This document shows, piece after piece, positions 12,801 through 50,080 of a stretch of 64,000 nucleotides of DNA (positions are counted from its first letter, which is position 1; each line of letters starts with the position of its first letter). The stretch lies in the IMG/VR virus record IMGVR_UViG_3300017722_005389; one strand, given 5' to 3'. The position numbers and the translations under genes are program-made. Under the pieces are notes generated by a model. The model had not been told where the DNA came from. It searched no databases and saw only the letters and a list, made by a program, of their open reading frames with translations. Source of the stretch: a virus. Lineage: Duplodnaviria > Caudoviricetes.

Positions 12801-13082
12801 ATGAAAAACATTTCAATCGAAAAAATTTTACTTGCACTAATTTTATTGCTTACACTTGCCAACGGATGTAACTCATGCAAAGGAAACAGAGAACATCGTA
12901 CTGAATTAAAATCAATGAAAAAGCGTGTAGATTCTTTAGAAAATACAATTAAACTTTCTAATGAAACAACTTATAAGAATATTTCAAAAGAAATCGAAAT
13001 GCTTTTGATTATCGAAAACGAAATCGATGGTAAAAATAAAAAATCAACTGAAATAAAAGAAATTATCAAAAACTATAAATAA
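12801..13082 (+). CDS. Membrane-anchored coiled-coil/lipoprotein (spanin-like?)
   Basis: Hydrophobic N-terminus ending LANGC (lipobox-like), then a coiled coil; adjacent to a membrane protein and an amidase. Confidence 0.4.
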   Translation: MKNISIEKILLALILLLTLANGCNSCKGNREHRTELKSMKKRVDSLENTIKLSNETTYKNISKEIEMLLIIENEIDGKNKKSTEIKEIIKNYK

Positions 13083-13753
13083 TGAACCCTCTTAAGAAAG
13101 TTAATTATTTCAATATAACAAATTCATTTTTCATATTAGCGATACTTATCTTCTCGATAACATCGCTTTTTCACGTTACAGTATTCTGGCTTATAACCAA
13201 TTCATTATTTCTTTCAATAATAATGTCTGTTGCAACTGGAGTTGGCATAATAAGTTCTCTTTTATCAACAAAATACACTAAGCTTACCTATATAAGTTTT
13301 GCATTAATTATTTTGATAGAACTCTTTGGAAATATTTATGGATCATTCATTCATATAGATATTAACAGTGAATATTTCAAAGGATGGAAAGAGCTTATGG
13401 AGCCTGTATTTAGTTTATTTTATACAGTAGAAGAAGGGGAAGTTATTCCAGATTCTATTTACAAGAGATGGGCAGCTATTATTCAAGGATCATTTATTCC
13501 ACTTCTGCTTTCAATAACATTCCACATGTGGATGGTTGTTAGAGATAAATATAAAAAATTAAATTCTAAAAACTTTAACCATCATGAAAAGATTAAAGTT
13601 GTTGAAGAAGTGGTAAAACCTGAAGACATGGTAAAACCTGAAGAAGCAGCAGTTCCAAAAGAGCGTAAGAAAAATTCAAGTGGCAGGAAAAGTATGAGTG
13701 TTTCATTCCCTTTTGAAAATATTAAAAAAAAAATTCAGAACCTGAAATTTTAA
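13082..13753 (+). CDS. Multi-pass membrane protein (holin-like?) with probable frameshift extension to 14100
   Basis: About four hydrophobic segments; an A10 tract at 13724-13733 leads into a start-less frame 13726-14100. Confidence 0.6.
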   Translation: MNPLKKVNYFNITNSFFILAILIFSITSLFHVTVFWLITNSLFLSIIMSVATGVGIISSLLSTKYTKLTYISFALIILIELFGNIYGSFIHIDINSEYFKGWKELMEPVFSLFYTVEEGEVIPDSIYKRWAAIIQGSFIPLLLSITFHMWMVVRDKYKKLNSKNFNHHEKIKVVEEVVKPEDMVKPEEAAVPKERKKNSSGRKSMSVSFPFENIKKKIQNLKF

Positions 13754-13788
13754 TTGAGAAAGATGAATTAATTTCTGAAGTAATTATT

Positions 13789-14016
13789 GAAGAAATTAAA
13801 GAAGAAATTGTAGAGGAAGCTAAAGAAGAAATTAAAGAAGAAATTAAAGAGGAAATTAAAGAGGAAATTAAAGAAGAAATTAAAGAAGAAATTGTAGAGG
13901 AAGCTAAAGAAGAAATTAAAGAAGAAATTAAAGAGGAAATTAAAGAGGAAATTAAAGAAGAAATTAAAGAAGAAATTAAAGAAGAAATTAAAGAAGAAAT
14001 TAAAGAAGAAATTAAA
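13789..14016 (+). repeat. 12-bp tandem repeat x19 (GA[A/G]GAAATTAAA = EEIK) with an exact higher-order 84-bp duplication
   Basis: Units counted directly; 13801-13884 is identical to 13885-13968. Confidence 0.95.
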
Positions 14017-14086
14017 AAGAAACCAAAGCCGAGGGTTATTAATGTAAAAAGTGATGACATTGGAACAATTTATTTAAAACCAGAAA

Positions 14087-14683
14087 ATGGACATAAATAA
14101 CGAGCATAAGTTAAAGACTGCGAATTATATAAGAGTTATTTCAGACAAGAGACAGATTTTATTAGGTAATACGCACCATTATAATTTAAACCATATCAAA
14201 TATTCTATAAATAGGAATAATGGGACATATGATAAATTACCTCATTTTACAATAACCAAAGATGGAAAGATTCATCAGCATTTTGATATAAAATTTTATT
14301 CGAATTATCTTGGGGGTGAGTATACAAAAGATATAATATCAATAGCTTTAGAAAATATCGGACAAATTTTTGAAGAAAAAGGAGTGTATTATGATATTTA
14401 TAATAACACATATGAACATACCCCTTTTGAAAAAAATTGGAAGAATTGTTCAATGTGGGATTCTTATACAGAAGCTCAATTTGAAGCGTGTATATATCTT
14501 TGTAATAAACTTATTAAAGATGGCGTTATAAGCCGAGCGGTTATGCCAACTAATGTTTTTAAACAAGATATAGCTAACTTCAAAGGAATCTGTTATAAAA
14601 GTAATTATGATAGTAAGTATTATGATTTAAATCCAAATTGGGATTTCGAAAAATTTAAAGAAAAAATAGAAAAAAATGAATGA
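14087..14683 (+). CDS. N-acetylmuramoyl-L-alanine amidase (Amidase_2-like), putative endolysin
   Basis: PHFTITKDGKIHQHF, ISIALEN and YTEAQFEA are typical amidase_2 motifs. Confidence 0.7.
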   Translation: MDINNEHKLKTANYIRVISDKRQILLGNTHHYNLNHIKYSINRNNGTYDKLPHFTITKDGKIHQHFDIKFYSNYLGGEYTKDIISIALENIGQIFEEKGVYYDIYNNTYEHTPFEKNWKNCSMWDSYTEAQFEACIYLCNKLIKDGVISRAVMPTNVFKQDIANFKGICYKSNYDSKYYDLNPNWDFEKFKEKIEKNE

Positions 14684-15164: not shown

Positions 15165-16220
15165 ATGTATTTAAATGAAACAGATTCGAGTTCTTCAGGA
15201 AGTTTTGAAGCTTCATTTGGAGGAAAAATGATAAAAAGAAGTTTCCACCCTTTTTATCCTTTAGAACAAAAAACACAAAAACGTAAAAAAAAGAAAAAAA
15301 TGAAAAATATCACAATTTCTGAAATTGAAAACATCGCTTTAAAAGCACTTATTTTCGAAGAGGTATATAGCGAAAAACCAGTTGAACCAAAAGGAAAAGA
15401 AATTTCTACAAGAAATATGAAACAAGAAATTTCAAGTTCTAAACCTTCAAAGGCTACTGAAAAAATCAAAAGTAAATCTGGAAAAGAGCATTCTTCAGAT
15501 ATTAAGAGTAGAACTGGTAAAGTAAAAGCTTCAATCAAAAATAATTTGAAAGGTGCCGAAGTTGAAGATGTTAACAAAGATAAAAAAGTTGATGATGATT
15601 ATGAAGTAGAAGCATATCAGAATGGTATGGAAGATATTGCATATGAAAGAATCTCAGATAAACAAAAGCAAAAAATTAAAGACCAGATTAGCGCAAAAGG
15701 TTCGAAAAAAGATCCTAACGCAGAAAAAAGCGGAAAGGTGGCAAAGAAAATGATTGATGGTGTTAAAAAACGTGATAGCTCAAAAGCAAATAATCCTTTC
15801 AATCGCTTAACACAATCAGGTTCTGACATAGAATATACTCAAAAAAGGAATCAGTCTGATTACCGACCAACTAAAAAGACTGCAATACAGGAAAATACAA
15901 TCAAAAGACTTTCTTTCAAAAGAGAGTTTGAAAGTACAAAGGACATGCTTGAAAGAATTCCTTCAAATTATAAAAGTCATGAGAAGATTTTTGAAATGTT
16001 TGATGGTAATAACAAATACAAAGTTCGTTGGGAAGGAAACTCAATTAATGGTACAGGTGTTATATTAGAGCAGCACAGTGAAGCTAAGGAGAATAGAATG
16101 TATGATATGTTCGACAAACTCGTAAATAATGGATTAAACGAAGGTTATAATTCATCTGAATTGAATGAGAATAATATTTTTAAGAGCTTTTTAAATTTTT
16201 CAAGAGAATTAAATGGATAA
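15165..16220 (+). CDS. Late, highly charged putative head/scaffold-associated protein
   Basis: TATTTATA at 15147-15154; several L/I-x-E sites (LNE, IFEE, IQE). Confidence 0.5.
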   Translation: MYLNETDSSSSGSFEASFGGKMIKRSFHPFYPLEQKTQKRKKKKKMKNITISEIENIALKALIFEEVYSEKPVEPKGKEISTRNMKQEISSSKPSKATEKIKSKSGKEHSSDIKSRTGKVKASIKNNLKGAEVEDVNKDKKVDDDYEVEAYQNGMEDIAYERISDKQKQKIKDQISAKGSKKDPNAEKSGKVAKKMIDGVKKRDSSKANNPFNRLTQSGSDIEYTQKRNQSDYRPTKKTAIQENTIKRLSFKREFESTKDMLERIPSNYKSHEKIFEMFDGNNKYKVRWEGNSINGTGVILEQHSEAKENRMYDMFDKLVNNGLNEGYNSSELNENNIFKSFLNFSRELNG

Positions 16221-16629
16221 AACAAACGTAAAAACATTTTACGAAAAGAAAGTCTTTTATGTTCAAAACGAATTCATAAAGGACTTTCTTTTTTTTCTTT
16301 TATACAAGATTGAAAAAACCTATCTTGGCGATGAAATAATGAATATGGAAAATAAACGTGATCATTTTGAATGGTCTGTAAATGAAACAGTTTTAAATTT
16401 CAAGAAGGAAGAAATTCATGTAAACGTTAGTAAAGACTTTATAAGTAAACTGTTCGATACCTTTAGCACGTATTATTATTCTTTGAAAAAAAATCGTAAT
16501 ACTGTTGAAGATTTAAAAATTAGATTTACTAACATCTTTAATTCTTCAATCAGCAAAACTCCAACACAGATTGAAGAGACTGTATTTTATGTAAGACTAT
16601 TCACAAGCCATATGGGAAATAGTTTTTAA
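16213..16629 (+). CDS. Hypothetical phage protein
   Basis: 138-aa ORF, translationally coupled. Confidence 0.6.
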   Translation: MDKTNVKTFYEKKVFYVQNEFIKDFLFFLLYKIEKTYLGDEIMNMENKRDHFEWSVNETVLNFKKEEIHVNVSKDFISKLFDTFSTYYYSLKKNRNTVEDLKIRFTNIFNSSISKTPTQIEETVFYVRLFTSHMGNSF

Positions 16630-25499: not shown

Positions 25500-26360
25500 A
25501 TGAATCAGAACAGACATTTTTTAACAGACTCATTTTACCCTCAAATCCCATTTGAAAAATTTACAAAACTCACAAAGAAGCTTCGTGAATTCTTCCTTGA
25601 TAAAAAAGGATTTATGGAGGTTCACCCTCAAAACAGGCTAGCAATCCTTTCTGCTTGCGAAAATCCCCATTCAATTGTGAAGTTTCAATACGAAAATTTA
25701 GACTATCCTCTTCCGCAAACAGGTCAGATGACTCTTGAAGATTATCTTCTTCTTCATCCAGAGCAAAAAGGTTTCTTTTGCATCACAACTTCCTATAGAA
25801 ATGAAAAAACCCCTGAAGTAGGAAGACATGCAAAAATTTTTCCAATGGCAGAATTTGAACTTCCTGGAGGTTTTTCTGAACTTCTTCAGATGGAAATTGA
25901 GCTTCTTCAGTTTTTAGGTTTCGAAGGAGAATATCCAACAAATCAATATGAAACTGTCGCATCAGAATATGGTGTTAAAGAAATTGATTCTCCAACTGAA
26001 TTGAAAATTGCTGAGAAATATGGTGAAGTTTTTATGTTAACACACTTCCCAGAACATACAAATCCATTCTGGAATATGAAAAGAAATGAAAATGGAACAG
26101 CAAATAAATGTGATGTTTTGATTCATGGAATGGAAACTATCGGTTCTGCAGAACGTTCTTGTGATGTTGAACAAATGAGAGATATTTTCTTTGCTATTGA
26201 AGATGGTAAATATGTTGAGAAACTTTTTGAACTCTTCGGATATGACAGGGTTATTAAAGAACTGAATGAATTTCTTTCGCATAATTTTATCCAAAGATCT
26301 GGCGGTGGAATTGGTCTTACAAGACTTGCAAGAGGAATGGAATTATCTGGTCTTTTGTAA
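25500..26360 (+). CDS. Stand-alone class IIb aminoacyl-tRNA synthetase-like catalytic domain (AsnRS/AspRS paralogue)
   Basis: Motif 1 GFMEVHP, motif 2 TTSYRNE...RH..IFPMAEFE, ETIGSAER, motif 3 RSGGGIGLTRL; no N-terminal OB anticodon-binding domain. Confidence 0.8.
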   Translation: MNQNRHFLTDSFYPQIPFEKFTKLTKKLREFFLDKKGFMEVHPQNRLAILSACENPHSIVKFQYENLDYPLPQTGQMTLEDYLLLHPEQKGFFCITTSYRNEKTPEVGRHAKIFPMAEFELPGGFSELLQMEIELLQFLGFEGEYPTNQYETVASEYGVKEIDSPTELKIAEKYGEVFMLTHFPEHTNPFWNMKRNENGTANKCDVLIHGMETIGSAERSCDVEQMRDIFFAIEDGKYVEKLFELFGYDRVIKELNEFLSHNFIQRSGGGIGLTRLARGMELSGLL

Positions 26361-38810: not shown

Positions 38811-39647
38811 ATGATTAATAAAGCAGATTTATACTTCAAAAGAAACCTCAACCTAATTCTTGATGAAGGTTGTTGGGATGAAAACCCAAGACCTAAATAT
38901 AAAGATGGAACCCCAGCACATACCAAATTCATCACTCAGGTTTATGAGGAATATAATATTTCTAAGGGAGAATTCCCTATAACAACATTAAGACCGACTG
39001 CTATCAAAACAGGCATCAAAGAGATTCTTTGAATATATCAAAAGCAAACAGCTTCACTTCAAGTTGCTCGTGAAATGGGCATAAATTGGTGGGATGAATG
39101 GAATATAGGTGACGATACTATAGGATTAAGATACGGTGCGACTGTTAAGAAGTGGGATATTATGAATAAAGTTTTAGATTCAGTAAAAAATAATCCATTT
39201 TCAAGAAGACATATCATAAACCTTTATCAAGAATCAGATTTAGCTGAAAGTGCTGGATTACACCCTTGTGCATTTTTAGCTGAATTCCATGTAAGAAAAG
39301 TTAATGGTAATTATATTTTAGATTTGACCTTATATCAAAGAAGTTCAGACTATATTATGGCAAATATTATAAACAAGTGCCAGTATTTAGCTTTGCAAAT
39401 GATGGTTGCTGGACATTGTGGATATAGCGTAGGAAAGTTTTGCCATTTCGTTGGGAATTTACATATTTACGATCGACATATGCCTGCAGTAGAAGAACTA
39501 TTGAAAAAAGAACCATTAGAAAATAATCATCCGTATATAGAATTGAATACTCAAAAGAACTTTTACGAATATTCTTTGGAAGATTTTAAAATTCACAATA
39601 CAAAATTTGTAACCAATATCGTAAACAAATTAGAAATCGCAATATGA
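38811..39647 (+). CDS. thyA: Thymidylate synthase interrupted by one in-frame TGA at codon 74 (conserved Trp)
   Basis: FPITTLR...KEIL-TGA-IYQKQ; SRRHII, catalytic LHPCA, YQRSSD and LHIYDRH all in one frame. Confidence 0.85.
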
Positions 39648-43993: not shown

Positions 43994-44080
43994 TTAACTT
44001 CCGATTGACAAAGGCTTATTCATTTCTTCTTTAATAATAAATTTGACAAGCTTTCTGAATTCGCTTAATTTAATTTTCAT
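43994..44080 (-). CDS. Leader-only mini-ORF (28 aa) or truncated relic
   Basis: Hand-translated MKIKLSEFRKLVKFIIKEEMNKPLSIGS*. Confidence 0.45.
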   Translation of the reverse strand: MKIKLSEFRKLVKFIIKEEMNKPLSIGS

Positions 44081-44116
44081 ATATTTTATAATAAAAATTA
44101 AGTTTCAAGATAAAAT

Positions 44117-44148
44117 TTTGGTTTCTTCAAAAGAAATATATATCTTTG
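44117..44148 (+). promoter_or_regulatory. Bacteroidetes housekeeping-sigma promoter
   Basis: TTTG (44117-20) - 20 nt - TATCTTTG (44141-48) matches -33/-7 consensus TTTG/TAnnTTTG. Confidence 0.7.
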
Positions 44149-44176
44149 TGCTTTATAAATATTTAATTTATTTCTT

Positions 44177-45010
44177 ATGAAATTCATTTATTCTATCTTT
44201 AGAAAATATAAGTTCTCATTATTACTTATATATTTTTACATGTTAGTTGCACAATTATTATTTTTGGCTGAACCATTCATACTTGGGAAGGCTATTGATG
44301 GATTGTTAACAAAAAATTATATTTGGTTAATAGTATTTTTAGCTGTTGAACTTTTACACAATGTTTTTATGTATCGAAGAATGGTGTTTGATACTAAAGT
44401 ATATGTTAAAATTTATAATGACATAATCTTTAATTTCTTAAGAAACAACAAAGAGGTTGACATTTCAGCTAAGATCGCAAGAACAGATATGTCACGTAGT
44501 ATAATAGGTTTTTTAGAAGGAGATATTCATTTTTTTATAATGGCAATTGTTACTGTCATCGGAAGTCTTTTTTTTATATTTATGCAGCATGCTTTAACTG
44601 GAGTTATTGTAGTTTGTTCGATACTGCCTATTACAATAACTGCAATAGTATTCTATAAAAAAATTGCCCAGTCTACTAAAGTTGGAAACACTCATTACGA
44701 ACAAAAGGCTAGTATTATGCATTCTGAGGATGAATCTCAAATTGATACTTATTTCAAAAGAAGAGCCAGGATCATTGTGATGCAATCCACATTACAAGGA
44801 AGAAATTGGGTTTCATTGAATGTTGCAAAGACAATTTTTCTTGTCTTATCATTATTTATTTTCACAAGTAAAAATATAGATATGACTCAAGGAGAAGCTA
44901 TTGCAATGTACGCCTACCTCAATCAGTTTATAATAGCTTTAATGTCTATTCCAATTGCAATGGAAACTATAACAAGAATTAAAGATGTTATAGGTAGAAT
45001 TAAATCGTAA
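44177..45010 (+). CDS. ABC-transporter transmembrane-domain-only protein
   Basis: LAEPFILGKAIDGLL and about six TM segments; no Walker motifs and no adjacent NBD gene. Confidence 0.7.
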   Translation: MKFIYSIFRKYKFSLLLIYFYMLVAQLLFLAEPFILGKAIDGLLTKNYIWLIVFLAVELLHNVFMYRRMVFDTKVYVKIYNDIIFNFLRNNKEVDISAKIARTDMSRSIIGFLEGDIHFFIMAIVTVIGSLFFIFMQHALTGVIVVCSILPITITAIVFYKKIAQSTKVGNTHYEQKASIMHSEDESQIDTYFKRRARIIVMQSTLQGRNWVSLNVAKTIFLVLSLFIFTSKNIDMTQGEAIAMYAYLNQFIIALMSIPIAMETITRIKDVIGRIKS

Positions 45011-45065
45011 ACAATTGAACTTCTTTAGAAAAAATAATGTTTCTATTTAAAATAAACTCTGTTCA

Positions 45066-45194
45066 ATGTTCACAATAGTAAAAAGGTTAGAAAATGGATA
45101 TATAATCATGGCACCTGATGGTGAAACCGCATATATCACTGAATCACAATATCAAAATTTAAAATTAAAAAATAAGATGTATGAAAAAGTTTGA
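45066..45194 (+). CDS. Small hypothetical protein (42 aa, missed by track)
   Basis: MFTIVKRLENGYIIMAPDGETAYITESQYQNLKLKNKMYEKV*, overlaps the next start. Confidence 0.45.
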   Translation: MFTIVKRLENGYIIMAPDGETAYITESQYQNLKLKNKMYEKV

Positions 45195-45459
45195 AATTGA
45201 AAGTTTAGATTCCGACTATCTTGATCCTATGCAAGTTATGTATCATGCCTGTTTTCAATGCCTCATAAATTTTGTTGAAAAAGAATCTGGATTAAGACAT
45301 TGCACATACAAAGATGATGATCAAAAAAAACATATTGATATAGCTTGTGAACTTTATGTTTGGTGGATAAAAAACCGAGAAGATCTGGATACAGATACAG
45401 ATGAATCTCAAGAAAAATTAGAACAACTTGTCAAAATAAGAAATTTTCTTTGGACTTAA
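45181..45459 (+). CDS. Hypothetical phage protein
   Basis: ELYVWW...IRNFLWT. Confidence 0.6.
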   Translation: MKKFEIESLDSDYLDPMQVMYHACFQCLINFVEKESGLRHCTYKDDDQKKHIDIACELYVWWIKNREDLDTDTDESQEKLEQLVKIRNFLWT

Positions 45460-45471
45460 AATAAATGAATT

Positions 45472-45774
45472 ATGAAAAAAATTGAAGACAAAATTAAATT
45501 TGTAGAGAAGTCAATTCTCGAAATCAAATCAATGATGGAAAAATCTAATGCTTTATATAAATTAGGTGTGGATATATTAGAAGTTGATATGGGTATTGAA
45601 TTAGTTATTGAATCATTTAAGTATATTTTCAATGAAAGTATATGTGAAACGATCTCATGGTGGATATTCGAAGATGTTGAAAAAACCATAGATGTAAATG
45701 GTAAAACATACAATCTTGAAAAATTAGAAGATTTATTAAAATTTATTAATGACGATTATAAAGGTGTATTATAA
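45472..45774 (+). CDS. Hypothetical phage protein
   Basis: ETISWWIFE motif. Confidence 0.6.
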   Translation: MKKIEDKIKFVEKSILEIKSMMEKSNALYKLGVDILEVDMGIELVIESFKYIFNESICETISWWIFEDVEKTIDVNGKTYNLEKLEDLLKFINDDYKGVL

Positions 45775-45873
45775 TTTCTTAGGAGCAATCATTGTTCTTT
45801 TGAAAGGATTTTTTAGTACAAATTTTAGATATAAAACAAATAAAACTAAATGAGACAAATACCTTGTTAGGCT

Positions 45874-46140
45874 ATGTTTAAAATATTCAAGAGTTACATT
45901 AAATGGAAACTTATCTCTATAATAAAGGATAAGCTGATACACTATTTATCGGAGAAACACAATTATTCACAAAGACAAAATGAATGGAAGTGCAAGGTTT
46001 ATGATGGTAAATGCTTAACAAAGGAACGATTTGAAAAAGAGCAAGAGGAGCAGATACGATGGTCGAATGAGCAATGGAAAGTTAATCATCATAAATATGA
46101 AGCGGTTTTGGAGATACTTAGAATAGTGGAGGGTCTGTAA
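45874..46140 (+). CDS. Cassette-borne hypothetical protein
   Basis: ATG lies 2 nt after GTTAGGC; the stop is followed by GTCTATAAC. Confidence 0.6.
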   Translation: MFKIFKSYIKWKLISIIKDKLIHYLSEKHNYSQRQNEWKCKVYDGKCLTKERFEKEQEEQIRWSNEQWKVNHHKYEAVLEILRIVEGL

Positions 46141-46147
46141 ATATTGT

Positions 46148-46361
46148 CTATAACGGTTCTCGGCTATACGTCAGGTTTTTTGCGAATTTGAAACACTAAA
46201 ATTAAAATATATGATGCGAGTAATTGAAATGACACACTCTGAAAAAGTAGAGATGTATCAAATGATTGAAAAAGACAGATTGATAGAAATGCTGATAGAG
46301 GCAAATAATGTTATTAACCGACTAACGGAAGTAAAAAACTTGCGTATAGCCGATGTTAGTG
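46148..46361 (+). repeat. Complete attC-like imperfect palindrome (214 nt)
   Basis: TAAC-GGTTC-TCGGCTATACG-T-CAGG-TTTTTT pairs with AAAAAA-CTTG-CGTATAGCCGA-T-GTTA; asymmetric spacer and one extrahelical T. Confidence 0.75.
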
Positions 46362-46450
46362 GTTCGTTGCCATGCCATCATAACTATATACAAAAAGACA
46401 CTTATTGGAAAAGTTGCACTCATTGTGGAATGATAGCCCCATTAGGGTAA
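46211..46450 (+). CDS. Chimeric ORF crossing an attC-like junction (Cys/His-rich tail)
   Basis: Residues 1-48 lie inside the palindrome; GTT AGT (V49-S50) is the R' box; tail CHH...CTHC. Confidence 0.6.
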   Translation: MMRVIEMTHSEKVEMYQMIEKDRLIEMLIEANNVINRLTEVKNLRIADVSGSLPCHHNYIQKDTYWKSCTHCGMIAPLG

Positions 46451-46508
46451 TGACCACTAACTAAAATATATATACACCTCAAAACAACTCACTTCAAAAA
46501 ATAAAATT

Positions 46509-46886
46509 ATGGAAATTAAAAAATTTGAAATGTACCTAGATGGTGGTACAATTGAACTAACGACAGATAAAGGAATTTTCTGTTTTGACAAAAGAATTAG
46601 AAGTAGTACAAAGGGTAGATTATACGATGGTTATCCTAAAGATGATAATTCTAACCTAATAGAAAATTCAGTTGATTTGGAACAAGAACTAATTGAACAA
46701 TTAAAATTGTTTAAGAGTGACTTCTATCAAAGTTCAATTGATTACTTTATTAACTCAAACAAAAATAATATTAGTGTTAACGAAGTGGAGTTTTGTAATT
46801 GTGGTAATCCAAGTGGTGGACATCATTGCTATGTAGATGAAAATATAATTGAATGTGCTGATTGTGGGAAACAATTACAAAATTAA
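46509..46886 (+). CDS. Chimeric ORF with Zn-finger-like cassette tail
   Basis: ATT AGT GTT AAC junction at codon 88; tail CNC...HHC...CADC. Confidence 0.6.
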   Translation: MEIKKFEMYLDGGTIELTTDKGIFCFDKRIRSSTKGRLYDGYPKDDNSNLIENSVDLEQELIEQLKLFKSDFYQSSIDYFINSNKNNISVNEVEFCNCGNPSGGHHCYVDENIIECADCGKQLQN

Positions 46887-47597
46887 CACTAACTAATCGC
46901 TAACCGCAATACTCTTATATTATTAATATGAATGTAAAAGAATATTTGAAATGATAATATTTATATATAAAAGAAAAGATGAATGATTTGAGAAAGTTTA
47001 TTAAAAATATTATAAAAGAATTTTTAAATGAACAACAAATGTTAAACAGTGATGGTATATGGTATCACGGTAGTGATTTTAAAAAACCAAATTTTGATTC
47101 TGATTTTAAACCTATTTTTTTTACTAAAAGTAAAGAGTATGCTGAAGGTTATGGTAAGTTTGTTAATTCATATAAATTAAACATAAAAAATCCATTAGAT
47201 ACAAGAATAGAAAAAGATTTAATATTTTATAATGAAAAATTCATACCTTGGACTAAAGAGTATAAATACACTGAAAAAGATGGTAGATATAATACATTAG
47301 ATAAAGGATTGGCTGTTCCTATGATAACAGCAAATTTATTGTATCTGTTTTTACGAAAATCAAAAAGAGAAGGATTAAATCATAATTATGATGGTGTTAT
47401 TGTTGATGAATCGGGATTTGAATTTGATAACGAGTTGGCAAAATATTCTTTATTTCCTTTGTCATTCACACAAATTTTAAATATATGAAAAAAGTAGAAA
47501 TGGTAAAAACAATTGAGTTCAAAGAACTAATTGAACAATTAAAATTGTTTAAGAGTGACTTCTATCAAAGTTCAATTGATTACTTTATTAACTCAAA
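46684..47597 (+). repeat. Exact 76-bp direct repeat (46684-46759 and 47522-47597)
   Basis: Both copies encode ELIEQLKLFKSDFYQSSIDYFINS in the same frame of two different ORFs. Confidence 0.95.
46979..47488 (+). CDS. Leader-bearing ADP-ribosyltransferase-like (ART-PolyVal-type) protein
   Basis: MNDLRKFIKNIIKEFLNEQ leader, TATTTATA at 46958-46965; WYHGS...PIFFT..KEYAEGYG...LNIKNPLD...YDGVI. Confidence 0.6.
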   Translation: MNDLRKFIKNIIKEFLNEQQMLNSDGIWYHGSDFKKPNFDSDFKPIFFTKSKEYAEGYGKFVNSYKLNIKNPLDTRIEKDLIFYNEKFIPWTKEYKYTEKDGRYNTLDKGLAVPMITANLLYLFLRKSKREGLNHNYDGVIVDESGFEFDNELAKYSLFPLSFTQILNI

Positions 47598-48027
47598 AAA
47601 AATAAATATGGAAAACTTAAAAGTAAAATACTTAGGCGTTGTTATTGGATATACTTATGATGGGAAAAAAATAGAATTTTTAGATAATGAACATTCTAAA
47701 GAAATTCAAAAAACACTATCAGAAGGTCACACAATAGGTCTATCATCAAGACGAATGGGGACTGTTGGCGAAAATGGTTATGTTAATTATGAAAAAATAA
47801 CTGAGTACAATGTTATCAATCGTCTTGATGAAATAATTAACTCAAAACAAAAAATACAAATGATAACCGAAGAAGAATACTTAAAAGCAAAGCAGATAGT
47901 TCAAGAATATGAAAAACAATTGGATATATCTAATGTTAGTTGTAGTTATATTGATAAATTAGGTAATGATGAACTAAAACAACGTGAAATAGATAGAAAA
48001 TGGGCTAAGGATAGAAATATATTATAA
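47485..48027 (+). CDS. Multi-module chimeric ORF ending in a cassette tail
   Basis: Contains the 76-bp repeat, internal A-rich ATG leaders (MENLK, MITEEEY) and a GTT AGT junction at codon 151. Confidence 0.55.
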   Translation: MKKVEMVKTIEFKELIEQLKLFKSDFYQSSIDYFINSKKINMENLKVKYLGVVIGYTYDGKKIEFLDNEHSKEIQKTLSEGHTIGLSSRRMGTVGENGYVNYEKITEYNVINRLDEIINSKQKIQMITEEEYLKAKQIVQEYEKQLDISNVSCSYIDKLGNDELKQREIDRKWAKDRNIL

Positions 48028-48104
48028 TTACAACTAACTATCGCTAACCGCAATGCTCTTATATTACTAATATTGCTGTATAAGCCTAATAATTTCAATT
48101 AAAT

Positions 48105-48977
48105 ATGATAATATCTATCTCTGGAAAAAAACAGTCTGGTAAAGACACGATTGCTGACATTATAAAGTCACTCATATATTGCCATATTGATGGCACTGAA
48201 CTTACAGAAGAAAATTTTGAATCTATAAGACATTGTAGGATTCATAATTACAAAGTCAAAAAATTCGCAGGAAAGCTTAAAGAAGTTGCAGCAATAATGC
48301 TTGGATGTAATCCTAAAGATTTTGAATCAGAAGAATTTAAAAATAGCATCCTTGGAGAAGAATGGTGGTACTATCAAGATAATGTGAACAATAAGTTTTT
48401 AGCCCCTTATTTGACTAAGTTTAGGTCTGAATCAGAAAATAAATTGTTACTTGAAAACAATTATGCTCTTTTGATGAGAACGACTCCAAGAACATTCCTT
48501 CAGAGATTGGCAACAGATGCTGTCAGAGAAAATTTACATTCTTGTTCTTGGATAAATTCCACCTTAGCAGATTATAACCCCAAAGAATTTTGGGTTATAA
48601 CAGATACAAGATTTGAGAATGAATTAAATGCTATAAAATACAAGGAACCTAAATTTTTTAATATTAGAGTTGAAAGATTACAATCTTTTGAAGATTGGTG
48701 TAACCAATATAAAGATTATGTAACTTTTATCAAAAATTTTGAACACATGGATGATAAGATATCTTCTAATGGTTTTTGGAGTTTATTGCATACCTCTAAA
48801 GGATATTTTAAACCTAATGAAGAAACCTTTACAACTCTAATTAATAATCTCAGTCATGAAAGTGAAACTCAATTAGATCATTATAATAACCTGGATTTTT
48901 TTATTGAAAATAAAGGTTCTATTGGAGATTTAATAGATAGAGTTAAATGGTTTATGATCGAAAATAAATTACTTTAA
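48105..48977 (+). CDS. Deoxynucleoside monophosphate kinase (T4 gp1-like)
   Basis: IISISGKKQSGKDT P-loop, FAGKLKE, PRTFLQRLATD, TDTRFENE, HESE. Confidence 0.8.
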   Translation: MIISISGKKQSGKDTIADIIKSLIYCHIDGTELTEENFESIRHCRIHNYKVKKFAGKLKEVAAIMLGCNPKDFESEEFKNSILGEEWWYYQDNVNNKFLAPYLTKFRSESENKLLLENNYALLMRTTPRTFLQRLATDAVRENLHSCSWINSTLADYNPKEFWVITDTRFENELNAIKYKEPKFFNIRVERLQSFEDWCNQYKDYVTFIKNFEHMDDKISSNGFWSLLHTSKGYFKPNEETFTTLINNLSHESETQLDHYNNLDFFIENKGSIGDLIDRVKWFMIENKLL

Positions 48978-49006
48978 TTTGAAACTGTAAATAACTGTTA
49001 AGTAAT

Positions 49007-49037
49007 TTTGTTTTTTCAGATGTATTTTCTACCTTTG
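49007..49037 (+). promoter_or_regulatory. Bacteroidetes housekeeping-sigma promoter
   Basis: TTTG (49007-10) - 19 nt - TACCTTTG (49030-37). Confidence 0.7.
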
Positions 49038-49075
49038 TAGAACTATTTTATCACAAAGTAAAAATTTAATTTCTC

Positions 49076-49267
49076 ATGGAAAAAAATGTAATTGAAATCG
49101 AACTAAACAAATGGCTTTACAAAGGATGCTTTATTGAAAAATTTGAAAACTCTGCGTTCTTTGAGAATTATCAAGTTTATAAAAATAATGAAAAACAACA
49201 CATGGTCGGCATGTGCATGACTTTTGCTGAAGCCAGAAAGTTATGCGAAAAAAATGAGTGTTTTTAA
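49076..49267 (+). CDS. Early hypothetical protein
   Basis: First gene after the host-type promoter. Confidence 0.55.
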   Translation: MEKNVIEIELNKWLYKGCFIEKFENSAFFENYQVYKNNEKQHMVGMCMTFAEARKLCEKNECF

Positions 49268-49297
49268 AACTATTTAAAACTTAAAACAACTGTTTAA

Positions 49298-49525
49298 ATG
49301 CAAAATAAATTCGAAAGATATAAGCAAAATTTAGAAAAAAGAATTGAGCTTTCTAAAGAAATTTTAGAAATTACTAATTCTATAATTTTTGACTTGAAAA
49401 ATACAGAAACTGTAAACACAATAGATGTTGCAATTCAGGAATTAAAGATTGAAATCGAAAATATGCAAAACCTTTTGAATGAATTAAGAACCTTTATAAA
49501 TTATGTCGAATCAAATGAACAATGA
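49298..49525 (+). CDS. Coiled-coil hypothetical protein
   Basis: 75-aa ORF. Confidence 0.55.
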   Translation: MQNKFERYKQNLEKRIELSKEILEITNSIIFDLKNTETVNTIDVAIQELKIEIENMQNLLNELRTFINYVESNEQ

Positions 49526-49682
49526 AACAAAAACAGCTGTTGAACATCTTTTTGAAGTTTATATGGATAAAAAGCTGAAACTTACTTTAGAAGATTTTAA
49601 AATAGCTTTGGAAATTGAAAATCAACAATTTAAAAATGCTTTTCAATCAAGTTTACTTCATGAAAAGAGTAATAATGACTAA
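49515..49682 (+). CDS. TAVE-family small protein (55 aa, missed by track)
   Basis: MNNETKTAVEHLFEVYMDKK...; paralogous to the ORFs at 52554, 55546 and 55849. Confidence 0.6.
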   Translation: MNNETKTAVEHLFEVYMDKKLKLTLEDFKIALEIENQQFKNAFQSSLLHEKSNND

Positions 49683-49696
49683 AAAATGACAATTCT

Positions 49697-50080
49697 ATGA
49701 CAAAACAAGAAATTGATAATTATCTCCAATCTATTGGAGGATTAAAAAATGGCTTCAGATTGGAATCTAAGCCAATAGTAGATTCTGATTTCTTCGCAGT
49801 TAGAGAAGGATGGTTTCAGCTTATTAAAGATTTGATTGCAGATTTGATTGAACTTGGTTGGAATAAAGAAGTTTGCCAAGTAAAAGAAAAATTCGGTGGA
49901 CTCAGATTCTATATTAATGATGGAAATGATGAAATGCACGATAGAGTCCATAAAGCTGAAACAGAAAGCTGCACAATTTGTGAAATAACTGGTAAACCAG
50001 GAAAGCTTAGAACTGATATTTCATGGTATAGAACGTTATGCGATGAACAATATGAATATTTCAAGAGTAATCGGAACTAA
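49697..50080 (+). CDS. Conserved phage protein (QVKEKFGGLRFY family)
   Basis: GWFQLI...QVKEKFGGLRFY...CEITGKPG...WYRTLC. Confidence 0.65.
   Translation: MTKQEIDNYLQSIGGLKNGFRLESKPIVDSDFFAVREGWFQLIKDLIADLIELGWNKEVCQVKEKFGGLRFYINDGNDEMHDRVHKAETESCTICEITGKPGKLRTDISWYRTLCDEQYEYFKSNRN

Follow-up and report, generated by a model that had tools for sequence, protein, structure and literature searches.

Integrons are the textbook device for gene capture and reshuffling, and they are thought to depend on a specialised insertion in their integrase. The attC sites that they recombine have a characteristic fold of 57-141 nt, in which an R box is followed by roughly symmetric unpaired spacers, an L box with extrahelical bases and a variable loop. 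Another kind of exchange unit, the promoter early stem-loop (PeSL) regulatory cassette, was reportedly described by Arbiol et al. in 2010 in the hyperplastic regions of T4-type phages. Classical integrons and clusters of attC sites lacking integron-integrases (CALINs) have been defined through IntI, attI and attC cassettes (Cury et al. 2016, PMC4889954), and the insertion in IntI is held to be essential for integron function and attC recombination (PMC8138268). Integron components that work with IntI1 have also been reported in virulent phages, including a Polaribacter phage (Qi et al. 2023, PMC9892861). Here we describe positions 46146-48038 of a 64,000-nt stretch of phage DNA (IMG/VR record IMGVR_UViG_3300017722_005389, Caudoviricetes; hereafter the window, whose numbering is used unless a locus label is given), which probably form an orphan, partly degenerate array belonging to an integron-like system for site-specific recombination that has a recombinase lineage and a site geometry of its own. 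To judge from sequence comparison, this system is common to freshwater Bacteroidota phages and Bacteroidota chromosomes. We do not class the locus as a classical attC/IntI integron.

An initial annotation of this DNA had proposed an integron-like cassette array with self-complementary cassette ends, and the three inverted repeats on which it was built are all present (tail cassettes 1 to 3 in Table 1), with 9 of 9 and 10 of 10 paired positions in the first two and 14 Watson-Crick pairs of 15 plus one G.T in the third. A fourth, imperfect pair that it listed (45866 with 46146-54) shares just GTTA/TAAC and about one further base and is not a real pair. The asymmetric junction fold that had been described upstream of cassette 1 (46146-46361) held up well: TAAC and GTTA boxes enclose a perfect 11-bp stem, extendable to 21 bp, with a 5-nt spacer on one side and a 1-nt spacer on the other, and the whole folds with a z-score of −3.9 that 0 of 200 shuffles equalled. 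This site, 216 nt long with a gene start inside its loop, is the only TAAC-hairpin-GTTA arrangement of its kind in the 64-kb window. In all three GTTA boxes, the letters GTT AGT are in frame as Val-Ser in an open reading frame (ORF; the 79-, 125- and 180-aa ORFs of Table 1), and the 3' arms touch or overlap the stop codons of these ORFs. Direct repeats are set into the same region. One of 88 nt (46684-46771/47522-47609) stops at the start of the second box, and a 42-nt element that starts in the TAAC box is present twice, at 46889 and 48034. A search of Rfam 15 gave no relevant match; to our knowledge, Rfam holds no attC family.

Repeats within this window alone are barely above chance. Perfect inverted repeats of at least 9 nt number 227 compared with 222 in dinucleotide shuffles, GTTA-started repeats of at least 8 nt number 10 where 14.5 are expected, and the modules, folded one at a time, reach z-scores of just −2.1 to −2.4. 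The excess of TTAGT-started repeats (4 observed vs 0.43 expected, with a maximum of 2 in 300 shuffles) is suggestive, the motif having been picked after the data had been seen. Across 11 related loci, by contrast with the window, helices of at least 13 bp number 19 where shuffles predict 0.17. The density of complementary ends to which the initial annotation had pointed is thus about that of shuffled DNA in the window and far from it in the relatives. The sequences of the relatives, with their compensatory changes, exact module limits and long helices, confirm that the inverted repeats are real, and it is on them that the case rests.

The modules of related loci, some of which were fetched through their small proteins, were read with a simple parser (labels of the form Lnnn denote the related loci compared, G002 and G003 are complete relatives and P0186 is a related protein). 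All these loci are chains with the same repeating order, x'TAAC, a 5-nt spacer (GGTTC-like), a stem-loop, 1-2 nt, and GTTAy...cargo...y'TAAC. The chain can be read as an assembly of modules that meet at a 4-nt core and are of two types: cargo modules, GTTA-x...x'-TAAC, whose own ends pair with each other, and hairpin modules consisting of TAAC, a 5-nt spacer, a stem-loop, a 1-nt spacer and GTTA. Each GTTA box that follows a hairpin is complementary, over 9-16 nt, to the TAAC box on the far side of the cargo, whereas its complementarity to the TAAC of its own hairpin is limited to the core, as expected of strand exchange at G|TT. This is the cassette layout that the initial annotation had recognised, and it recurs in the integron of Vibrio phage MK672802, which served as a control and has YTAAC...GTTAK cores. 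Complementarity of the cassette ends extends over 8-11 nt in that control, 9-16 nt in the window and 13-24 nt in the relatives. Among 29 distinct cassettes, a canonical end helix can be recognised in which positions 1-4 are GTTA (in 28 of the 29, with TTA in every one), positions 5-10 form Watson-Crick pairs using all four bases, position 11 is G.T in 20 of the 29, positions 12-15 pair, and position 16 is unpaired. The full integron 7-mers RYYYAAC and GTTRRRY are matched in part, the window having CTATAAC and GTTAGTG. Most cassettes hold whole genes with their own starts, as in L039, where a whole gene of the 86-aa family forms one cassette with a 14-bp end helix, and all cargo lies in one orientation.

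The hairpin sites have a two-helix fold. Both arms of the window hairpin are retained in L034, L035, L036 and L061 with different neighbouring modules on both sides, and the hairpin family GTGTATGAG.AGTGGC is common to the jumbo-phage relative L005 and to recombinase-linked arrays. Compact hairpins of 48-100 nt in L001, L005, L034 and L039 have z-scores of −6.2 to −7.4, and the stems in L047 show single mismatches or bulges. Because of their G.T pairs, the hairpins fold better on the sense strand (−34.6 kcal/mol on + vs −24.6 on − in L005; −20.5 vs −14.4 in L001).

Individual hairpin loci also show some details of their own. L034 contains a compact 57-nt site at 1748-1806 whose two boxes are fully complementary (ACCGCTAAC/GTTAGCGGT), and in the same locus a 13-nt sequence, GTTAGCGGTTCGT, is directly repeated on either side of a tail cassette plus hairpin, after which comes a short, apparently silent remnant of a VSGS... 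tail. In L035 (around 1270-1300, compared with 712-815 in L005), the 5' arm of a hairpin leads directly into a 49-aa ORF at a short direct repeat (TATGAGTAG/TATGAACAG), an arrangement that suggests loss of the hairpin loop and 3' arm by slippage.

The comparison of closely related phages supplies a compensatory change in the ends of cassette 1. The pair GTTAGTGGT/ACCACTAAC of the window reads GTTAGCGGT/ACCGCTAAC in L034 and L038, from 95%-related phages, so that a T>C change at 46360 is accompanied by A>G at 46456; the substitution is synonymous in a Ser codon on one side and non-coding on the other. Modules also combine differently in different genomes, with their limits at the cores. The GTTAG...CTAAC limits of cassette 1 are exact in three contexts in which the DNA outside is unrelated. 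Cassette 2 (124 nt) is identical at 122 of 124 positions in L058, where the flanks are unrelated on both sides and identity runs from TTAG to CTAAC. At one of the two positions that differ, the base before TTAG, the window has A and L058 has G, and the left junction therefore lies between G and TT, which bears out the earlier remark that the match beginning at 46771 fits a G|TT crossover. The cassette with the 49-aa ORF in L005 is followed by a different module in L035. On a larger scale, L005 has flanks 97% identical to those of the window and a different 937 nt in place of window positions 45846-48014; inside the replaced region the two share only CTATAACGGTT and a linker of about 60 nt after the first TAAC box. 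L001 and L002, whose dNMP (deoxynucleoside monophosphate) kinase is 82% identical at the amino acid level, have yet another content at this locus.

The three cassettes of the window are of an unusual kind in that they have no start codon and encode a protein tail only. Protein searches showed that the head MMQVIEM...NLRIADVS is followed by 8 or more different tails. Tail 1 (VSGSLPCHH...CTHCG...) was found behind 8 or more unrelated heads and tail 2, with 95-97% identity, behind 5 or more. Members of the gene family represented at 46509 are usually 86 aa long, tail-less and end in ...INSKQK, and in P0186 another tail comes after the ...DISNVS junction seen in the third ORF. The join between head and tail is always at the Val-Ser codons of the core (GTT-AGY). 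Gene heads lie within the loops of hairpin modules, with the 3' arm encoding the last residues before Val-Ser; the head in L038 is another one, and so is its stem. Between the window and L038, the codons of tail 1 show 11 synonymous changes and 1 non-synonymous change, and tail 1 is therefore real coding sequence under selection. Because GTT AGY always encodes Val-Ser, a cassette inserted after a head with the core at its end is read in frame, giving a protein of two parts. We tentatively propose, as an idea with rather less than an even chance of being correct, that the core, by doubling as codons, would let a site-specific recombinase join any core-ending head to any start-less tail, a DNA-level, phase-compatible "exon shuffling" that would build combinatorial two-part phage proteins, many of them zinc-ribbon-tailed, from heads stored in hairpin loops. 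In a literature search, we found no description of tail cassettes swapping protein ends for integrons.

A candidate enzyme is present in the complete 52-kb phage behind L038, where the 280-aa tyrosine recombinase of IMGVR_UViG_3300014205_000052 starts 52 nt past the tail-1 cassette. It has the catalytic R-H-R-H-Y motifs (read by eye) and matches PF00589 (7e-40) and PF13495; it falls below the cut-off for both the XerA/integron-integrase and the integron-integrase model (173.8 vs 265 bits for TIGR02249), and its best PDB matches, XerA and IntI4, are about equal. Homologues were fetched blind to their context from five further viral contigs and from metagenome-assembled genomes of Saprospiraceae, Flavobacterium and one other organism. 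The recombinases of the related arrays measure 266-292 aa, and the homologues range from 39 to 100% identity. All 8 homologue loci examined have a canonical 3' arm, together with a TA.TATATGT-like linker, about 50-70 nt ahead of the ATG. The recombinase adjoins arrays in L043-L047 and L050-L052, and these arrays are found upstream of it only, none downstream (five cassettes in L047, M-H-M-H-M in L052, M-H-M in L050 and L043), with the cassette ORFs pointing towards the recombinase in the same orientation. No paper on a Xer-like, insertion-less recombinase with such arrays in Bacteroidota came up in the literature search.

The system resembles integrons in several respects. Both have one-orientation arrays of promoter-poor cassettes, sites that are defined by fold and not by sequence, core letters of the form YTAAC...GTTAK, first cassette bases that pair with the cassette's own inverse core, a junction that would lie at G|TT, an array bordered on one side by a tyrosine recombinase of the Xer/IntI group, and orphan arrays in which the recombinase is absent. 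There are also differences. Whereas integron cassette ORFs point away from intI, the recombinase here lies downstream of the cassettes in the same orientation as they do, and at 266-292 aa it lacks some 43 residues at the position of the IntI4 insertion. The end helix is 15 bp long with a fixed G.T, the spacers are 5 nt vs 1 nt (the Vibrio sites have 6-7 nt on both sides), and the wobble pairs favour folding of the sense strand, in contrast to integrons, which recombine the bottom strand. Cargo and hairpin modules reassort separately here, some cassettes consist of an in-frame tail only, and some hairpin loops hold a gene head. Specific to this locus are the jumbo-phage setting and the start-less in-frame tail cassettes with gene heads in hairpin loops. 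Integron components of phages have already been published (PMC9892861); the statement in the initial annotation that integron-type arrays are poorly described in Bacteroidota phages is accordingly true of this type of site and too broad for integron components in general. The same parser found no array of this type in Polaribacter phage P12002L, which carries a published CALIN.

Two other systems share some features with the locus. Like PeSLs, it lies among small early genes in a hypervariable region and has repeated intergenic elements that mark module limits (46889-46930, 48034-48075 and the linker 46462-46508); PeSLs, however, are near-identical direct repeats that act by homologous recombination, whereas the ends described here are inverted, module-specific and covarying. 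Shufflons and intragenic invertons (Rci/sfx, and hsdS switches with Xer-like recombinases) likewise combine a tyrosine recombinase, repeats in coding sequence and in-frame C-terminal exchange. In those systems, the repeats share one sequence and the DNA between them is inverted, while here no inversion was seen and the asymmetry of the repeats is fixed.

Several observations weigh against an integron-like recombination system at this locus. The search for a tyrosine recombinase was negative among window ORFs of at least 187 aa and in the complete relatives G002 and G003, and the L038 recombinase aligns to IntI4 in two pieces, falling short by those same residues at the IntI-specific insertion. 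Of the earlier claim that the array is CALIN-like and mobilised by an IntI-like recombinase, what stands is that an enzyme of the Xer/IntI group ends arrays elsewhere; the enzyme is missing from the window ORFs and its homologues lack the insertion. Since the window contains no recombinase, the description "orphan, CALIN-like" does fit. The link between recombinase and arrays could also be the mere shared ancestry of one phage lineage. Breakpoints relative to close relatives at 45806, 45845 and 46930 are not at GTTA boxes, so that the breakpoints predicted at the boxes are borne out for the exact, core-bounded cassette limits and not for these three. The 91-aa cargo gene of L001 has no GTTA/TAAC repeats in five distant contexts (L025, L027, L028, L030 and L032), and gene and arms are therefore not linked over long distances. 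The end helix is canonical only in cassette 3, cassettes 1 and 2 having 9-10 pairs, and the wobble pairs lie on the sense strand, as would be expected for RNA. Finally, cargo and hairpin modules assort independently on both sides, unlike a classical cassette, which keeps its own attC. This independent assortment would need exchange at TAAC as well, unless homologous exchange within shared modules explains it.

If the array does belong to an integron-like system, a Xer-like recombinase encoded by the host, by another phage infecting the same cell or in the unsampled remainder of the genome would recognise a single-stranded folded site composed of the end helix and the hairpin, as in attC. Strand exchange at G|TT would then excise, insert and reassort cassettes, and ordinary recombination within shared modules would mix them further. 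Where cassettes are tails and hairpin loops contain heads, the array might work as a combinatorial head-by-tail shuffler for small phage proteins.

The main rival to this explanation is that the helices act in RNA. In a polycistronic early mRNA, a GUUA.../...UAAC helix would close each cistron, hairpins between the cistrons would control processing, stability or translation, and modules would be swapped by ordinary or microhomology recombination, so that the breakpoints at cores would be the ends of homology. Such a role would account for the fact that all wobble pairs are G.U on the sense strand and that the hairpins fold much better on + than on −, for the position of the arms around start and stop codons, for the terminator-like hairpins with U-rich 3' sides, and for the presence of arrays in phages that have no recombinase. 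On the other hand, a shared core of 5 nt is too short for homologous exchange, yet cassette 2 has moved with base-exact limits; genuine integron sites have these same cores; in 8 of 8 loci, the arrays end at an IntI/Xer-type recombinase and no sites lie downstream of it; and helices of 9-15 bp closing loops of 100-700 nt make weak RNA elements (z about −2). On balance, we consider a purely RNA-level function unlikely. Chance similarity in the AT-rich DNA of an ordinary hypervariable mosaic region would fit the window-wide repeat counts, the several breakpoints away from the boxes and the mere 9-10 bp of two of the three pairs. The compensatory substitutions, the exact module limits in other genomes and the 19 long helices of the relatives (vs 0.17) leave it next to no probability, and pure chance is excluded by the relatives.

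The neighbouring recombinase weakly matches tyrosine-type DNA invertases, and in a further rival reading the cargo modules would be invertible segments of a shufflon or inverton, with the enzyme flipping tails on and off. This would explain why inverted repeats bound the segments, some of them within genes, and, because partner repeats must match, would explain the covariation as well. It is nevertheless very improbable in view of the fixed polarity of the modules: in 20 of 29 cassettes, position 11 carries G in the 5' arm and T in the 3' arm, the flipped A/C is never seen, and the polarity always agrees with the direction of the cargo ORF and of the recombinase gene. No cargo was found in both orientations among the loci compared, an inverted cassette 1 runs into a stop after 13 codons (read by eye), and most cassettes hold whole genes with their own starts. 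Several further candidates were tried and set aside. Eukaryote-like splice signals (GTTAGT...ACTAAC) were rejected for want of an AG acceptor and in view of the phage context, bulge-helix-bulge introns because the geometry does not fit, double-stranded dif-like sites because the half-sites are not inverted copies of each other, and miniature inverted-repeat transposable elements or other palindromic elements (e.g., the Rickettsia palindromic element, RPE) because the modules are unrelated beyond the 4-6-nt core. Ends of the IS200/IS605 type were considered and dropped, and the motif TAACGGTT...CGGCTATA was rejected as a general promoter of the genome since it occurs once in 64 kb.

Table 1. 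Modules, reading frames and associated elements of the array region (window coordinates).
Feature	Coordinates	Strand	Description
Hairpin site between modules	46146-46363	+	Box GTCTATAAC (TAAC 46151-54), spacer GGTTC, 5' arm 46160-80, 152-nt loop, 3' arm 46333-53, spacer T, box GTTAGTGGT
79-aa ORF spanning two modules	46211-46450	+	N-terminal 48 codons in hairpin loop and 3' arm; C-terminal 31 codons in tail cassette
Tail cassette 1	46355-46461	+	No start codon; VSGSLPCHH...CTHC..., zinc-ribbon-like tail; arms GTTAGTGGT 46355-63 / ACCACTAAC 46453-61 (9 bp)
Linker after TAAC box (TAAAATATATAT...)	46462-46508	+	Also in L005; resembles the 50-70-nt cassette-recombinase linker of relatives (by eye)
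125-aa ORF	46509-46886	+	Member of the 86-aa family with the usual stop read through, joined to tail cassette 2
Tail cassette 2	46770-46893	+	(I/V)SVNEVEFCNCG...CADCG...; arms TTAGTGTTAA 46771-80 / TTAACACTAA 46883-92; inner helix of 12 bp, 46791-802 / 46871-82; first base (before the arm) A, not G
Repeated intergenic element, copy 1 (ACTAACTAATCGCTAACCGCAAT...TATATTA...)	46889-46930	+	Begins in TAAC box; same element before the dNMP kinase gene in L001 and L005
180-aa mosaic ORF	47485-48027	+	Copy of the last 29 codons of the 86-aa gene (47522-47609), middle part and tail cassette 3
Tail cassette 3	47935-48038	+	Pair 47935-49 / 48024-38; canonical end helix, 16 pairs (47935-50 / 48023-38); G.T at position 11 (47945 with 48028)
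Repeated intergenic element, copy 2	48034-48075	+	Upstream of the dNMP kinase gene (48105-48977)
35-nt gene remnant	45772-45806	+	100% identical to part of a 285-aa gene intact in L001; left edge of the replaced region
GTTAGGC box	45866-45872	+	No complementary partner beyond the 4-nt core; probably outside the system

The genome that carries the array can be read fairly as that of a freshwater jumbo phage of about 271 kb, because a metagenome contig of 271,154 nt, ena:ERZ27247909:k141_1631700, matches window positions 44000-50000 at 100% identity over 6 kb, profile searches find a primase, an AAA ATPase, a PolB-type exonuclease, a thymidylate synthase, a dNMP kinase and lysins in the window, and relatives of the phage are present in IMG/VR. 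Lake metagenomes in which the phage occurs include SRR11555629, SRR11472087 and ERZ27247906. From relatives labelled Flavobacterium and Saprospiraceae, we infer a host in the Bacteroidota. Nothing similar to window positions 45400-48600 was found among GenBank phages, and no variation is seen in the contigs that encode exactly the flanking proteins (L006-L023), each of which matches the window at 100% identity. Exact DNA probes made from the two intergenic elements returned either nothing or just two relatives that were already part of the comparison. Many public metagenome contigs of this phage break off within the direct repeats 46684-46771/47522-47609 and 46889-46930/48034-48075; the locus is therefore systematically fragmented in assemblies, and its variant forms may be under-sampled.

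A few other features of the window deserve mention. A further GTTAGT...ACTAAC pair, the fourth, lies at 16426/16533 (GTTAGTAAA/TTTACTAAC, 9 bp with a 90-nt loop, in frame as Val-Ser), wholly within the ORF 16213-16629 and with no stop at its 3' arm; it may be a fossil cassette or a product of chance. Between the two copies of the repeated intergenic element, a 169-aa ORF (46979-47488) weakly matches the ADP-ribosyltransferase of polyvalent proteins (PF18760, E 1.3e-4, below the cut-off). Of the Pfam profile, the thymidylate synthase ORF (39075-39647, 190 aa) covers just positions 76-260; its N-terminal portion must therefore be encoded elsewhere, and the gene may be split or interrupted. In L030, two thymidylate-synthase pieces lie on either side of another gene. 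The window also encodes a class II aminoacyl-tRNA-synthetase-like protein (25500-26360; PF00152, E 1.3e-12) and contains a tandem array at 13777-14022, 20.6 copies of the 12-nt unit GAAGAAATTAAA with 88% matches, between the ORFs 13082-13753 and 14087-14683.

The region points to a second lineage in which cassette logic is combined with a plain Xer-like enzyme, distributed across Bacteroidota and their phages, including a jumbo phage. If this is confirmed, the requirement for an integrase insertion would not be general, and phages would gain a gene-exchange currency of their own. Recombination inside reading frames, if it does take place as we propose, would account for the strongly mosaic make-up of small phage proteins, and the tail cassettes would offer a natural scaffold for protein-fusion libraries.

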